In this document: in pieces, positions 9,556 to 17,914 of the stretch
Position numbering within the stretch: the first letter of the stretch is position 1
Layout: the number at the start of each line of letters is the position of its first letter
Assembly (NCBI GenBank): GCA_942491575.1
Contig: CALOBT010000025.1
Span: 2,334,321 to 2,358,320, forward strand
Source of the DNA: an uncultured Spirochaetota bacterium
Lineage (GTDB): Bacteria > Spirochaetota > UBA4802 > UBA5550
DNA length: 24,000 bases
Reading direction: 5' to 3'
Position numbers and translations under genes: made by a program
The notes under the pieces: model-generated
Database searches by the model: none
Told to the model about the DNA's origin: nothing
What the model saw: the letters and a program-made list of their open reading frames with translations, nothing else

Positions 9556-9605
9556 ACCGACAGTCTTCCCATTACATAAAAAAACAAAAAAACATTTAAA
9601 TGGTT

Positions 9606-9637
9606 GACCGTTAATCGTATATTTACGATAAACGGTC
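9606..9637. promoter_or_regulatory. 32-nt imperfect palindrome (candidate ArsR operator) overlapping a candidate promoter for the arsR-hgcAB operon
   Basis: GACCGTTAATCGTATA | TTTACGATAAACGGTC, with 14 of 16 positions symmetric. TTGACC (9604-9609), a 17-nt spacer and GATAAA (9627-9632) overlap it. The ATG at 9640 follows immediately. An A-rich tract lies upstream (9578-9597). Confidence 0.5.
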
Positions 9638-9639
9638 AT

Positions 9640-9987
9640 ATGAACAGAACAGTACATAATAAATTCAGCCGAAAACAGCAGGATGCCGCCATCTTTGCAA
9701 AGGCACTCTCCCATCCCGCACGCATATCCATTCTCCTTATGCTGGCCAAACAGAAAACCTGTATCTGCGGTGATATGGTGGAACAGCTTCCCATGGCACA
9801 GTCAACGGTTTCCCAGCACCTGAAAGAACTGAAAGAGGCGGGACTTATTATGGGAGAGATTGACGGACCACGAATCTGCTACTGCCTGAATCATGAGATT
9901 TTCAATCAATTCAGGGGCATCCTGGATGAACTACTATTGGAAATAGATTTACACAGAGGTAAAGAATCCAATGACTGCTGCGAGTAA
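9640..9987 (+). CDS. arsR: ArsR/SmtB-family metalloregulator (metalloid-type CxC site)
   Basis: wHTH segment ALSHPARISILLMLAKQKTCICGDMVEQLPMAQSTVSQHLKELKEAGLI. CIC occupies the position of the ELCVCDL As(III) site of classical ArsR. There is an extra C-terminal CC (NDCCE). The ORF track starts at TTG 9604; I prefer ATG 9640 because 9604-9637 looks like promoter/operator. Confidence 0.85.
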   Translation: MNRTVHNKFSRKQQDAAIFAKALSHPARISILLMLAKQKTCICGDMVEQLPMAQSTVSQHLKELKEAGLIMGEIDGPRICYCLNHEIFNQFRGILDELLLEIDLHRGKESNDCCE

Positions 9988-11122
9988 ACCGACACTGATT
10001 CCCGTATCCCCGGTGATTTCACAATGCGGCTGCGGAACGGGGACCGGTAAAAATAACTTCAAGTGGAGCAATAAACTTCCCCCCTATATAATCGAAGAAT
10101 ATCATTCACCTTCGGGACCACTCCCACGCATAACAGGCGCCATTACATGGCGGGACCGCCTCGGTACCTTCCGGTCGCGAACAAGCAATTTCCGGATGAA
10201 ATACAAGGTAAAACCGGGTCTCTACGCACTGGGTAAACCTGATGAAAACTCCCATGTGATAGTTACCGCTAATTATAAAATGTCCTTTGACGCTGTACGG
10301 AAAAATCTCGCACGGCATGATGCCTGGATACTGGTCCTTGACACCGCCGGAATCAATGTCTGGTGTGCCGCCGGAAAAGGATCCTTCGGTTCCGCTGAGC
10401 TGATTAAAAAAATCGATGAGACGGGCATCTCCAGTATTGTCACTCACCGCGGGATAGTTGTTCCCCAGCTGGGAGCCCCAGGAATCAACAGCTCCCTTGT
10501 TAAAAATGCAACTGGCTTTCGTGTCCACTTCGGGCCGGTACTGGCTCGCGATCTTCCGGCTTATCTCTCAAACAATATGACAGCTGAAGCCTGCATGAGG
10601 ATTGTCCCCTTTACGATGTGGGACCGACTCGTCCTGACGCCGATGGAACTGAATCCTGCATTAAAAAAATTCATACCTTTGGCACTTTTACTTTTTGCCT
10701 TCTTCGGATTGACCGCCGAGGGAATCATATTCAGAGAGGCAATCACCGGGGGGGGTACATTTATTCTGCTGATGGCCCTTGCGGTAGCAACAGGGGCTAT
10801 TATCGTACCTTTGATATTGCCATTCATTCCCTTTCGAAGTTTTTCCCTGAAGGGGACATTTGCGGGACTCGTTCTCCTGGGTTTAATGCTGTTAGCGGGA
10901 TTCCATCGTGAGATGTCACCCCTGGTTGCTGCGGCTGCGGCTATTATGACAACAGTTATCGCATCCTACCTTGCGCTGATGTTTACGGGAACGACCACCT
11001 TTACTAATATTTCCGGAGTAAAAAAGGAGATGCGTTATGCCATACCGGCATATGCGGTTCTCTCTGCCTTTTCAGTAATTTTTCTGATAATCTTTAAATT
11101 ACAACAGGGAGGCCTGTTATGA
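9971..11122 (+). CDS. hgcA: HgcA, corrinoid-binding mercury-methylation protein (CFeSP-like domain + C-terminal TM domain)
   Basis: 383 aa. The diagnostic cap-helix motif GINVWCAAGKG is at nt 10355-10378 for N-V-W-C-A-A-G-K, with Cys at residue 132. Flanking regions are HgcA-like (PGLYALGKPDENSHVIVTANYKMSFDAVRKNL; VVPQLGAPGI). About five C-terminal TM helices follow. The ATG overlaps the arsR stop by 17 nt. It is followed by hgcB with an ATGA overlap. Confidence 0.85.
   Translation: MTAASKPTLIPVSPVISQCGCGTGTGKNNFKWSNKLPPYIIEEYHSPSGPLPRITGAITWRDRLGTFRSRTSNFRMKYKVKPGLYALGKPDENSHVIVTANYKMSFDAVRKNLARHDAWILVLDTAGINVWCAAGKGSFGSAELIKKIDETGISSIVTHRGIVVPQLGAPGINSSLVKNATGFRVHFGPVLARDLPAYLSNNMTAEACMRIVPFTMWDRLVLTPMELNPALKKFIPLALLLFAFFGLTAEGIIFREAITGGGTFILLMALAVATGAIIVPLILPFIPFRSFSLKGTFAGLVLLGLMLLAGFHREMSPLVAAAAAIMTTVIASYLALMFTGTTTFTNISGVKKEMRYAIPAYAVLSAFSVIFLIIFKLQQGGLL
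10355..10378 (+). other. hgcA: HgcA cap-helix signature N-V-W-C-A-A-G-K (proposed Co-ligating Cys)
   Basis: Codons aat gtc tgg tgt gcc gcc gga aaa, read directly in the hgcA frame. Confidence 0.85.
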
Positions 11123-11409
11123 AATATATGAAAAATGTCGCCACCCTTCGATATGATTCTTCAAAATGTACCGGCTGCGGGAGATGCACCGAAGTATGTC
11201 CGCGTGGTGTTTTTATCATGAAAGAAAAAAGGGCCGCCATCACCGATGGCGATCTCTGTATAGAATGCGGCGCCTGTGCCCTGAATTGTTCATTCAATGC
11301 CATAAACGTTGAAGCCGGCGTAGGCTGCGCCCAGGCGGTGCTCAACAGTATGATTTATGGCGGCGAACCGAACTGTGATTGCTCCGGAGAAGGAAGTTCA
11401 TGTTGCTGA
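11119..11409 (+). CDS. hgcB: HgcB, 2x[4Fe-4S] ferredoxin partner of HgcA
   Basis: 96 aa. Two CX2CX2CX3CP-type motifs (CTGCGRCTEVCP; CIECGACALNC). The Cys-rich tail ends in vicinal Cys (...CDCSGEGSSCC*), as in characterised HgcB. GGGAGG SD. ATGA start/stop overlap with hgcA. Confidence 0.85.
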   Translation: MKYMKNVATLRYDSSKCTGCGRCTEVCPRGVFIMKEKRAAITDGDLCIECGACALNCSFNAINVEAGVGCAQAVLNSMIYGGEPNCDCSGEGSSCC

Positions 11410-16183: not shown

Positions 16184-17515
16184 TTAAAAACGTCCGTAAA
16201 TTATACCCGCCGCTGTGGACATGACAATAACCAGCAGGGAATACATAATAGTTTTTCGTGTCCCAAGGACACTCCTTATGACCAGCATGTTGGGCAGGGA
16301 CAATGCGGGCCCCGCCAGCAGAAGAGCAAGGGCAGGCCCCTTCCCCATACCGCTTCCCAGAAGTCCCTGAAGTATCGGCACCTCAGTGAGTGTTGCAAAA
16401 TACATAAATGCCCCTGCGAAGGAGGCGAAAAAATTTGCCCCGAGGCCATTACCGCCAAGCCACGCCTCTACCACCCTCGAAGGAATAATCCCCTCATGCC
16501 CCGGGCGCCCGAGGAAAAATCCAGCTGCAAGAACACCGATAAGCAGAAGAGGCATTATCTGTTTTGCAAAACCCCATGTCTCCTCAAACCAGCCGCGAAG
16601 ATTCTCATCCCCTGTGGCAATAACCGCGGAAAGGCCCACGATACCGGCACTGAAACCAATAATGGGAATATCCTGATAGATGATCGCTATAATTATCACT
16701 GGAACTCCTGCTGCAGGGGCTTTCCATGAAGAAAGACCGAACCAGCGAACCAGGATCACTCCCAGGGCTGCAAAGAAAAATCCACTGATTTTCCATTTAT
16801 ATAACCAGACCAGGTAGATGAATCCACTCTCATACCCCGGGCGGCCCCAGTTTGCAAAAATCAATATTGCCACCAGTGTTGCGAAAAAAGCCGCCCCCTG
16901 CCACAGGGGGCGTCCCTTTTCATCATCAGGGATAACCATCTCCGGTGTCTCCCTCTTTTCTTCTTCACGACGGTTCAGGAGGTGCATAAAAATCCCGATT
17001 AGCAGACTAAAGGCTACCGCCGAGAGCGCACGAACCGTTCCAAGTTCAGCACCGAGAACCCTAGAGGTTACAATTATCGCCATAACGTTTATTGCGGGTC
17101 CCGAATAAAGAAATGCAGTTGCAGGCCCGAGGCCGGCGCCGACACGGTAGATACCCGCAAAGAGTGGCAGAACAGTACAGGAACAGACCGCAAGAATTGA
17201 ACCAGAAACGGATGAGAGGCCATAGGCAACGAACCGGTTCGCCCCCGGTCCCAGGTAACGTATCACTGAATTCTGATTAAGAAAGCGTGCCATGGCCCCT
17301 GCAATAAAAAAAGCCGGAATAAGACAAAAGATAACATGCTCCCTGGCATATGAACGGATCAGGTAGAGGCTCTCATCAACTGCATTATCAAAACGCGGGG
17401 TCCCCGCCGGCATAAAGTAGATACCGGCAAATATTATAATCATCCAAAAAAGATATTTTCCTTCGACTTTCCAGTTCACATAGACCTCATTCAGCACATT
17501 TGGCAAAATTGCCAA
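16184..17515 (-). CDS. DUF318/UPF0718 permease (ArsP-like family)
   Basis: 443 aa, polytopic. Conserved CxC in a TM helix (AVCSCTVLPLFAGI) followed by GPATAFLYSGPAINV. It lies immediately downstream of arsR. TTG start as given in the track, so the start is uncertain. Confidence 0.75.
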   Translation of the reverse strand: MAILPNVLNEVYVNWKVEGKYLFWMIIIFAGIYFMPAGTPRFDNAVDESLYLIRSYAREHVIFCLIPAFFIAGAMARFLNQNSVIRYLGPGANRFVAYGLSSVSGSILAVCSCTVLPLFAGIYRVGAGLGPATAFLYSGPAINVMAIIVTSRVLGAELGTVRALSAVAFSLLIGIFMHLLNRREEEKRETPEMVIPDDEKGRPLWQGAAFFATLVAILIFANWGRPGYESGFIYLVWLYKWKISGFFFAALGVILVRWFGLSSWKAPAAGVPVIIIAIIYQDIPIIGFSAGIVGLSAVIATGDENLRGWFEETWGFAKQIMPLLLIGVLAAGFFLGRPGHEGIIPSRVVEAWLGGNGLGANFFASFAGAFMYFATLTEVPILQGLLGSGMGKGPALALLLAGPALSLPNMLVIRSVLGTRKTIMYSLLVIVMSTAAGIIYGRF

Positions 17516-17533
17516 ACATTGTTTAAAAAATTA

Positions 17534-17866
17534 TTATCTCTTGCAACAGGTAATAATTTCCATCTGGTCACGGGCATTCGTTTCAAGAACAGTCTCTACA
17601 CAACCGATAAAATCAAGAATACAGGTAACACGCAGACGATAATAGATGCAGTTGCCCCTTTTTTCATCTATAACCAGGCCGGCATTTTTCAGCACAGTAA
17701 GGTGCTTGGATACCGTTGAGACATCCGCCCCGATCATCTCCGTCAGTTCATTCACGCAGCGCTCTTCCTTTTTCAGTTCTTCCACAATAAAAAGCCTGCT
17801 GGGATGCGCAAGTGCCTTGATTATTTTTGCCCTCGCTTCATATTGTGCCTGTACCTGTGGTTCCAT
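17534..17866 (-). CDS. arsR: ArsR/SmtB-family regulator (Cys-rich C-terminus)
   Basis: 110 aa. KALAHPSRLFIVEELKKEERCVNELTEMIGADVSTVSKHLTVLKNAGLV. Only one Cys at the classical CVC position, but C-terminal Cys residues (TCILDFIGC...ITCCKR). First gene of the minus-strand ars operon. Confidence 0.85.
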   Translation of the reverse strand: MEPQVQAQYEARAKIIKALAHPSRLFIVEELKKEERCVNELTEMIGADVSTVSKHLTVLKNAGLVIDEKRGNCIYYRLRVTCILDFIGCVETVLETNARDQMEIITCCKR

Positions 17867-17881
17867 AGACTACCTCTACTT

Positions 17882-17914
17882 GGTATTTTGGCCAAATACC
17901 CCGGCAATTGTCAA
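17882..17914 (-). promoter_or_regulatory. Candidate ars-operon promoter (TTGACA-18 nt-CAAAAT) overlapping the palindrome GGTATTT(TGGCC)AAATACC
   Basis: The minus strand reads TTGACA ATTGCCGGGGTATTTGGC CAAAAT. The inverted repeat at 17882-17900 covers the spacer and -10 region, 16 nt upstream of the arsR ATG. It is a plausible ArsR operator. Confidence 0.4.

Follow-up and report, generated by a model that had tools for sequence, protein, structure and literature searches.

Why the mercury-methylation genes hgcA and hgcB should lie against a full arsenic-resistance operon, and whether the two share a function, is the question raised by a 24,000-nucleotide stretch of DNA from an uncultured Spirochaetota bacterium (GCA_942491575.1, contig CALOBT010000025.1, positions 2,334,321–2,358,320 of the forward strand; hereafter the window). 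A plus-strand operon in the window, arsR1-hgcA-hgcB followed by an Fe-S oxidoreductase gene, converges on a minus-strand operon with the order arsR2-permease-arsE-tlpA-ccdA-acr3-hemerythrin-arsC. An original prediction, made from the sequence of the window, treated these genes as one 8.3-kb unit in which HgcAB methylates As(III) and an ArsP-like permease exports the product. The explanation favored here, to which we assign a probability of roughly 0.68, is that these are two adjacent convergent operons, each autoregulated by its own ArsR and linked by co-selection and co-induction under arsenic or thiol stress, with no methylation-export pathway in common. Its observed basis is the identity of the genes, their conservation, the distinct operators of the two operons, and the independence of the permease cassette from hgcAB. 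What hgcAB natively does and how it is regulated matter for forecasts of methylmercury production, and the locus is a clean, vertically conserved case of hgcAB under a four-cysteine ArsR and locked to a full arsenic-resistance operon.

Two convergent operons carry different operators

The 12 genes of the block, 8 flanking genes, and 3 short end open reading frames (ORFs) were scanned against Pfam and NCBIfam. All 12 genes were found where the original prediction had placed them, and the ORF map and domain matches bear out the convergence of the two operons; likewise, none of the scanned ORFs matched a methyltransferase or Mer model, as expected from the claim that arsM and mer genes are absent from the window. 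hgcA (9971–11122, plus strand) encodes a corrinoid mercury-methylation protein of 383 residues that matches NF040863 over residues 52–375 (381.6 bits versus a cutoff of 275). Its cap-helix motif NVWCAAGK (residues 129–136, including Cys132) is invariant in an alignment of 16 homologues, and its C-terminal half reads as hydrophobic in the translation. hgcB (11119–11409, plus strand) overlaps hgcA by 4 nt and encodes a 96-residue 2x[4Fe-4S] ferredoxin (NF040864, 117.4 bits versus a cutoff of 99) with two CX2CX2CX3C motifs (C17/20/23/27 and C47/50/53/57) and a terminal C95-C96 pair. Mercury methylation, taken here as the demonstrated activity of HgcAB, would be the activity of the present pair as well.

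Directly 5′ of hgcA, and overlapping it by 17 nt, arsR1 (9640–9987, plus strand) encodes an ArsR/SmtB repressor of 115 residues whose winged-helix domain matches HTH_5 (47.7 bits) and NF033788 (71.9 bits versus a cutoff of 55). The start codon was corrected to the ATG at 9640, the TTG at 9604 being part of the −35 hexamer TTGACC. ArsR1 contains the pairs Cys41-x-Cys43 and Cys80-x-Cys82 and a C-terminal Cys-Cys, and the 39-residue distance between the CxC pairs is that of Cys47/49/86/88 in an ArsR of Pseudodesulfovibrio mercurii ND132 (ND132 ArsR2), which lies 5′ of hgcAB and controls its transcription (Gionfriddo et al., bioRxiv 10.1101/2022.10.17.512643; AEM 2023). The CxC…CxC pattern is kept in nine hgcA-linked ArsRs of Spirochaetota/Leptospirales, while a second group of hgcA-linked ArsRs in the same alignment (Fibrobacter and others) carries the classical ELCVC motif. 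Arsenic induction was the minimal claim of the original prediction, and co-induction of hgcAB by arsenic through an ArsR with the matching four-Cys pattern has been shown in ND132: As(III) and As(V) induce hgcAB along with the acr3-arsC and arsP-arsE operons, and Hg does not (bioRxiv 10.1101/2022.10.17.512643).

The promoter/operator region of arsR1-hgcAB (9595–9639, plus strand) contains a promoter-like site at 9595–9623, found by consensus scan, and a −35 hexamer, TTGACC, at 9604–9609. A 15-nt inverted repeat, TGACCGTTAATCGTA / TACGATAAACGGTCA, occupies 9605–9619 and 9624–9638 and stops 1 nt short of the arsR1 ATG; its core, ATCGTA-N4-TACGAT, lies at 9614–9629. The same core occurs at the matching position 5′ of the hgcA-linked arsR in eight other loci (L003, L006, L027, L032, L034, L036, L082, and L083), with a variant in a Desulfobacula metagenome-assembled genome (MAG; L077), and all other matches in 1.17 Mb were dispersed and inexact, in numbers that chance would give. 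The geometry of the repeat suggests that the arsR1-hgcAB leader is very short or absent, and from the conserved position of the operator, a few nt 5′ of the arsR ATG, arsR-hgcAB transcripts throughout Spirochaetota and Leptospirales may have little or no leader. No RNA element or riboswitch was detected 5′ of hgcA by Rfam matching. A literature search turned up no description of a TTGAC-(n)-ATCGTA-N4-TACGAT operator. The core is offered as a concrete candidate operator of hgcAB-linked ArsRs in Spirochaetota/Leptospirales that could serve to predict arsenic-switched methylators from sequence.

At the opposite end of the block, arsR2 (17534–17866, minus strand) encodes the 110-residue ArsR/SmtB repressor of the ars island (HTH_5 and NF033788 matches), 87% identical to its orthologue in the nearest relative (L082). 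In the alignment ArsR2 lacks the R773-type α3 CVC motif; its cysteines are a C-terminal Cys-Cys pair and four more. Its promoter (17867–17920, minus strand) has TTGACA at 17914–17909 in a promoter-like site with a score of 10/12, and a near-palindrome, TATTTTGGCCAAATA, covers the −10 region at 17884–17898, in a stretch conserved in L082. ATCGTA-N4-TACGAT occurs once in the window and not 5′ of arsR2, so an ArsR operator common to both promoters was rejected. The different palindromes at arsR1 and arsR2 therefore describe two regulons side by side rather than one transcriptional unit: an ArsR-family regulator does head each operon, as had been proposed for a single block between two ArsR promoters, but the unity of the block did not hold. 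The conserved candidate operator, together with the distinct operators of the two operons, is one new element here, a useful but incremental addition.

The block is conserved in the nearest relatives

The nearest relatives of the locus were found on a Joint Genome Institute (JGI) metagenome contig and in the MAG GCA_964585555.1, with HgcA 59% identical. The gene order is kept in them throughout: hybrid kinase, NUDIX, 7TMR kinase, LytTR, arsR, hgcA, hgcB, the convergent arsC…arsR operon, and a 7TMR-SpoIIE phosphatase. Protein identities to the relative are uniform, at 57–87%, over the flanks, the hgc genes, and the ars genes, and because of this uniformity and the syntenic flanks the block is read, by sequence comparison, as old and handed down vertically within this lineage. 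Recent horizontal acquisition of an island was considered and rejected in view of the uniform divergence, the conserved flanks, and the lack of tRNA and mobility genes; scans with Pfam/NCBIfam mobility models and a tRNA check found no transposase, integrase, or tRNA in the window. The adjacency looks functional, and neither accidental nor recent.

Two genes depart from this picture. The relatives have neither the Fe-S gene nor the hemerythrin gene, and both are best read as lineage-specific local insertions. The claim that the two operons end 2 nt apart was confirmed at the junction (…AAG TAA tc TTA CAT…, stops at 12539–12541 and 12544–12546). As a meaningful feature, the spacing was rejected: it results from the local Fe-S insertion, the hgcB-arsC gap being 36 nt in L082, where the Fe-S gene is absent, and the gap between hgcB and an ars operon being 5 nt, with a different gene, in another spirochaete (L036). 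A terminator-like hairpin with a U-run (12434–12453, minus strand), located by consensus scan, follows the arsC stop by ~90 nt and falls within the 3′ end of the Fe-S gene; the same scan found no terminator-like site on the plus strand after the Fe-S stop at 12541. The two operons may thus yield overlapping antisense 3′ ends, convergent read-through being plausible but unproven.

Arsenic genes recur near hgcAB in other genomes

The neighborhoods of 80 hgcA loci (L002–L081) from different GTDB species, the source genome not among these, were surveyed. In this check of other genomes for ars genes near hgcAB, which the original prediction had proposed, ArsC and/or ACR3 lie within ~5.3 kb in 8 of the 80 loci, and in 4 of the 34 loci with full 5-kb flanks, with none found at 5.5–10 kb from hgcAB in the surveyed loci. 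Six of the eight ArsC/ACR3 loci have these genes on the hgcAB strand and within 2 kb. ArsR adjoins hgcA in roughly a quarter of the 80 loci by BLAST with the window proteins, and unbiased clustering of ORFs within 5 kb placed ArsR (16 loci), MarR (13), ACR3 (7), and ArsC (6) among the top five recurrent neighbor families. The steady partners of hgcAB are ArsR, ArsC, and ACR3 or ArsAB, which handle inorganic arsenic, and not the ArsP-like permease.

Arrangements differ among these loci. A Fibrobacteraceae MAG (L053, 9077–12433) has arsR-arsC-hgcA-hgcB-acr3 on one strand, and L046 (1342–6691) has arsR-(108 aa)-arsA-arsB-arsC-hgcA on one strand, an order also given as arsRDABC-hgcA; coupling of hgcAB to ars genes in both is tighter than in the window. 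A Deltaproteobacterium (L078) carries a near-identical island, ArsR-ArsE-ArsP-DGC-TlpA-CcdA-ArsC-ACR3, divergent from hgcAB. In L036 (Spirochaetes bacterium ADurb.Bin218, 8167–11379) a different ars operon converges on hgcB, composed of an ELCVC-type ArsR, ACR3, and a 550-residue protein that in translation resembles a coenzyme A-disulfide-reductase/rhodanese fusion. Going by record titles, the ars-linked hgcAB loci come from no fewer than eight lineages, each assigned to a different higher taxon, and linkage in so many lineages and in such varied arrangements argues for its repeated selection. Ten ORFs that separate or adjoin the ars and hgc genes at six other ars-linked hgcAB loci were also scanned; they include ArsA, ArsB, a P-type ATPase, a nuclease, response regulators, and one ORF with no Pfam match, and no arsM was found among them.

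These counts bear on the alternative that the adjacency has no functional meaning and reflects an insertion accident or the clustering of metal genes in a variable region. ArsC and ACR3 are missing from the neighborhood of 72 of the 80 hgcA loci, the two operons of the window converge under separate regulators and operators, the content of the junction is fluid, with Fe-S and hemerythrin genes here that are absent in the relative, and the ars cassette is autonomous elsewhere (see below), all of which such an accident would accommodate. It would not readily account for ars genes ranking among the commonest hgcAB neighbors, in at least eight lineages and in varied orientation, often abutting on the same strand and with none farther out at 5.5–10 kb, nor for the convergence of a different ars operon on hgcB, 5 nt away, in L036. 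The uniform divergence across the block and the absence of transposase, integrase, and tRNA from the window also speak against it, as does the identity of the hgcAB regulator in ND132 as an arsenic-responsive ArsR. We consider this alternative unlikely, although it is the strongest of those weighed.

Three further features of the survey concern the vicinity of hgcA. A MarR-family gene lies directly 5′ of hgcA in 13 loci, and a small Cys-rich protein, AbrB/PrlF-like by eye, is encoded directly 5′ of hgcA in five loci, mostly Nitrospirota. An unannotated 106-residue reverse-strand ORF, which may be spurious, occurs within 5 kb of hgcA in eight loci.

A permease cassette found elsewhere without hgcAB

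The permease gene (16184–17479, minus strand) encodes a 431-residue member of PF03773 (ArsP_1/YraQ/UPF0718; 232.7 bits versus a cutoff of 32.3); its start at 17479 follows a 431-residue NCBI record, the ORF call having reached 17515. The designation "ArsP-like" stands as regards family membership, but the protein reaches no NCBIfam equivalog; even the nearest models, SaoE and the SO_0444 Cu/Zn efflux protein, score far short of their cutoffs. A Cys-Ser-Cys is present and reads LAVCSCTVLP. An exact TPFCSCS, which we take to be the type of vicinal Cys motif found in Campylobacter jejuni ArsP, is present in the permeases of L078 and L007, whereas the window protein has AVCSCT at this place and a ~100-residue insertion, and shares 26% identity with the L007 protein over 59% of its length. 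It belongs instead to a distinct, very large subfamily of ~432-residue proteins that are ~60% identical across phyla and annotated at source only as "permease" or "YraQ/UPF0718"; the label "ArsP" may be too specific.

The cassette ArsR-permease-Thioredoxin_3-(DGC)-thioredoxin-DsbD_2 was found whole in three of four unrelated genomes reached by exact-protein look-ups (a Kiritimatiellota isolate, a Pseudomonadota MAG, a Desulfurivibrionaceae MAG, and a Planctomycetota genome; L090 7629–11497, L091 7631–10689, L092 7622–9548, and L093 3814–8175). The Desulfurivibrionaceae contig (L092) shows ArsR-permease-Thioredoxin_3 alone and stops after Thioredoxin_3. None of the four has HgcA or HgcB within 8 kb of the cassette; ACR3 lies beside it in one of the four and a Psr/Arr-like molybdoenzyme in two. 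A metagenome scan with the permease alignment used patterns that were too specific and returned two loci, both from the species of L082. Among the 80 hgcA loci, PF03773 permeases were found near hgcAB in only two, plus two fragments, so that hgcAB and an organoarsenical exporter do not consistently co-occur. Because the cassette occurs without hgcAB in all four genomes and PF03773 is rare near hgcAB, it is read from these comparisons as an autonomous thiol-redox/efflux module that was joined to acr3-arsC in this lineage, and not as a dedicated outlet of HgcAB. Assignment of the permease to a widespread ArsR-permease-thioredoxin-thioredoxin-CcdA cassette independent of hgcAB is the second new element of this analysis.

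This result bears directly on the idea that HgcAB methylates As(III) by a cobalamin-dependent route that needs no ArsM, that the PF03773 permease exports its methylarsenite, and that the 8.3-kb block is one unit. Several features invite the idea: the block is tightly adjacent and conserved, an ArsR-family regulator heads both operons, no methyltransferase was seen among the ORFs scanned in the window or among the ten at six ars-linked hgcAB loci, and ND132 tolerates As(V) better than its hgcAB deletion mutant, although the phenotype is modest (bioRxiv 10.1101/2022.10.17.512643). The permease also keeps a vicinal Cys-x-Cys, and C. jejuni ArsP extrudes methylarsenite (MAs(III)) and not As(III) (PMC6205960). 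As cited there, cobalamin-dependent, ArsM-independent arsenic methylation occurs in methanogens through MtaA, methylcobalamin, and coenzyme M (Thomas et al. 2011), a precedent for the corrinoid route proposed for HgcA, but one that is a side reaction of methanogenesis and not an activity of HgcAB.

The idea found no support in the evidence. In ND132, which has hgcAB, two ArsP proteins, ArsE, and no ArsM, neither mono- nor dimethylarsenicals formed from As(III) or As(V), and a presumed thioarsenical was all that was seen (bioRxiv 10.1101/2022.10.17.512643). The permease cassette stands without hgcAB in all four unrelated genomes, PF03773 is near hgcAB in only the 2 of 80 loci and 2 fragments given above, and where hgcAB is embedded among ars genes its partners are ArsC with ACR3 or ArsAB, that is, inorganic arsenic genes. 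In addition, the operators of the two operons differ, the permease is only 26% identical to a TPFCSCS-type protein and reaches no curated equivalog, and arsM adjoins hgcAB in some genomes (McDaniel et al. 2020, PMC7438021). Nor does an ArsP next to ACR3 require a methylase nearby, since C. jejuni has Acr3 as well as ArsP, and its ArsP guards the cell against trivalent organoarsenicals from outside (PMC6205960). Taken together, a joint methylation-export pathway, though chemically conceivable, is very improbable. A direct role of HgcAB in arsenic detoxification, here and in lineages whose hgcAB is set between arsC and acr3, for example by corrinoid-dependent transfer of a methyl carbanion to an As(III)-thiolate, is equally improbable on present evidence; were it true, the product would exit by way of the Cys-x-Cys permease or would escape standard speciation (as a trivalent, thiolated, or volatile species), and mercury methylation would be a side reaction.

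Least probable of all is that the permease-thioredoxin-CcdA cassette serves mercury, exporting methylmercury or handling Hg(II)-thiol complexes for HgcAB: methylators have no known methylmercury exporter, the vicinal Cys pair of the permease suits soft organometals, other proteins of PF03773 carry a Cu/Zn efflux annotation, and often neither ACR3 nor ArsC accompanies the cassette, but it is absent from most hgcAB loci, is present in genomes without hgcAB within 8 kb, and Hg does not induce hgcA in ND132.

Arsenic-responsive co-induction as the favored explanation

In the favored explanation, two ArsR-controlled operons lie side by side and are linked by co-selection and co-induction. The first would comprise arsR1-hgcA-hgcB and the locally acquired Fe-S gene, transcribed from a promoter covered by ATCGTA-N4-TACGAT. 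A thiophilic ligand, most likely As(III) by analogy with ND132, would bind ArsR1, release it from the operator, and thereby induce hgcAB, which would belong, as in ND132, to an arsenic-responsive regulon. The second, arsR2-permease-arsE-tlpA-ccdA-acr3-hemerythrin-arsC, would form a composite arsenic-resistance operon with its own operator. Its ArsC is predicted to reduce As(V) with thioredoxin-type electrons and its ACR3 to extrude As(III), while the cassette presumably moves a thiol-reactive (organo)arsenical, or a soft species akin to one, out of the cell and maintains thiols beyond the cytoplasm in reduced form. ArsR1 and ArsR2 each probably sense a thiophilic ligand.

Several points weigh against this explanation. 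The ligand of ArsR1 could be another soft metal or S-adenosylhomocysteine (SAH); the four-Cys ArsR of ND132 responds both to arsenic and to SAH build-up (bioRxiv 10.1101/2022.10.17.512643). The level of hgcAB transcript in ND132 did not predict the rate of methylation, and loss of hgcAB there gave only the modest As(V) phenotype described above (bioRxiv 10.1101/2022.10.17.512643), neither of which accounts for selection of the linkage. In other phyla hgcAB sits between arsC and acr3, an arrangement that points to a biochemical role more direct than co-regulation alone. Moreover, the promoter, terminator, and leaderless calls come from consensus scans only, and the arsenic induction of hgcAB is known from another organism, ND132.

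Comparison with published systems

The link between hgcAB and arsenic is already published, having been proposed and tested (McDaniel 2020; Gionfriddo 2022/23), and the present locus is a well-preserved new example that strengthens the known picture rather than changing it. In metagenome-assembled methylators, hgcAB is flanked by acr3, arsC, arsR, and arsM (McDaniel et al. 2020, PMC7438021, Fig. 6), and 14 of 31 cultured methylators have arsR 5′ of hgcA, ars genes being present on 4 of 35 contigs (Zhang et al. 2023, PMC10349881). Our survey frequencies, 8 of 80 for ArsC/ACR3 and about one-quarter for ArsR, match these counts of 4/35 contigs and 14/31 cultured methylators. The window resembles those loci in that hgcAB adjoins acr3, a thioredoxin-type arsC, and arsR. 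Its island is among the fullest, adding the permease, ArsE, TlpA, CcdA, and hemerythrin, and it differs in being convergent rather than same-strand and in lacking arsM within the window. The phyla listed as having an ArsR linked to hgcAB include Spirochaetes (Gionfriddo et al., bioRxiv 10.1101/2022.10.17.512643).

The closest counterpart of the first operon is arsR2-hgcA-hgcB of ND132, which likewise has an ArsR/SmtB gene directly 5′ of, and overlapping or co-transcribed with, hgcAB, CxC pairs 39 residues apart, and no arsM nearby. No other ars gene is co-localized with hgcAB in ND132, whereas an eight-gene ars operon converges on hgcAB in the window, where an Fe-S oxidoreductase gene also comes after hgcB. 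The likeness of ArsR1 to ND132 ArsR2 is one of Cys spacing, ArsR1 having in addition its C-terminal Cys-Cys. For the second operon, the C. jejuni ars operon, as reviewed in PMC6205960 (Shen 2014; Chen 2015), is comparable in that, under ArsR control, it joins an ArsP-type permease to Acr3 and to an arsenate reductase, but ArsP in that system protects against exogenous trivalent organoarsenicals and no methylase is involved.

The permease cassette is reminiscent of the arsenic-induced "operon C" of ND132 (ArsR-ArsP-ArsE-DGC; Gionfriddo et al., bioRxiv 10.1101/2022.10.17.512643) and of the cassettes in L078 and L090–L093, which share the order ArsR, PF03773 permease, Thioredoxin_3, thioredoxin, and CcdA/DsbD_2. 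The version in the window differs from the cassette elsewhere in having no DGC-domain gene and in being joined to acr3, hemerythrin, and arsC as a single operon, whereas elsewhere the cassette often stands alone or beside Psr/Arr-like molybdoenzymes. The ars operon of B. vulgatus is also said to contain thioredoxin and DsbD genes. As to the physiological role of HgcAB, a 2026 preprint proposes halomethane dehalogenation.

Other genes of the block and its flanks

The remaining genes of the minus-strand operon are described from its promoter-distal end. arsC (12544–13002, minus strand; PF01451) encodes a 152-residue arsenate reductase of the thioredoxin-coupled pI258/low-molecular-weight protein tyrosine phosphatase type. 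Its best matches fall below their curated cutoffs (TIGR02691, 139 bits versus 174.3; NF010053, 138.6 versus 215), and the translation contains the CX5R P-loop C10-TGNSC-R16 with Cys82 and Cys89, a combination of Cys10-X5-Arg16 and Cys82/Cys89 that we take as defining the thioredoxin-coupled ArsC family. A 135-residue bacteriohemerythrin (13027–13434, minus strand; NF033749, 148.5 bits versus a cutoff of 84) is encoded between acr3 and arsC, an unusual component of an ars operon. Its gene, absent from L082, lies in the lowest-GC part of the window (0.389 over 13001–14000). acr3 (13573–14625, minus strand) encodes a 350-residue arsenite efflux transporter (TIGR00832, 454.8 bits versus a cutoff of 282.8) that is 87% identical to its L082 orthologue.

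Next in order, a 239-residue CcdA/DsbD-like membrane thiol-disulfide electron transporter (14711–15430, minus strand) gives weak DsbD and TsoB matches; the same slot in other cassettes holds DsbD_2/DsbD_TM, and its translation carries the Cys motifs SPCH and GPCT. The 152-residue TlpA-like thioredoxin (15438–15896, minus strand; CVPC; Thioredoxin and Thioredoxin_2 matches) is probably an exported lipoprotein, judging from an N-terminal signal that ends in LLNC. Between it and the permease gene, a 77-residue thioredoxin-like protein of the MTH895/ArsE family with a CAKC motif (15915–16148, minus strand) matches PF13192 (94.7 bits) and TIGR00412 (99.5 bits versus a cutoff of 62).

The last gene of the plus-strand operon (11420–12541) encodes a 373-residue HdrD/GlpC-like Fe-S oxidoreductase with Pfam CCG and Fer4_8/Fer4_17 ferredoxin domains and a partial, below-cutoff match to NF045663 (the "diclust_near_Sec" model). 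It most likely begins at the ATG at 11420, 10 nt past the hgcB stop, rather than at 11357, and is probably co-transcribed with hgcAB. Homologues ~45% identical occur standalone or, often, fused to an N-terminal VTT/DedA membrane domain (PF09335), in unrelated neighborhoods, and the gene was found at none of the 80 hgcA loci and in neither syntenic relative. On these grounds, a role as a conserved partner of HgcB was rejected, and by sequence comparison the gene is regarded as a lineage-specific addition rather than a conserved hgc gene. Speculatively, its product may supply HgcB with electrons or thiol-disulfide chemistry.

On the hgcAB side of the block, a 1025-residue sensor (5721–8798, plus strand) holds two kinase modules in one chain, in the order 7TMR-DISM, HisKA/HATPase, receiver, and LytS-type His_kinase (PF06580)/HATPase, and a LytTR response regulator gene lies between it and arsR1, directly 5′ of the latter, in an arrangement kept in the relatives. 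On the ars side, a receptor of 7TMR-DISMED2/7TMR-DISM type that is fused with a SpoIIE (PP2C) phosphatase (17984–20047, plus strand) is encoded divergently from arsR2 and is syntenic in L082. The two divergent genes have a 117-nt intergenic region in common, and the receptor gene has a strong promoter-like site (TTGACA-17-TATAGT).

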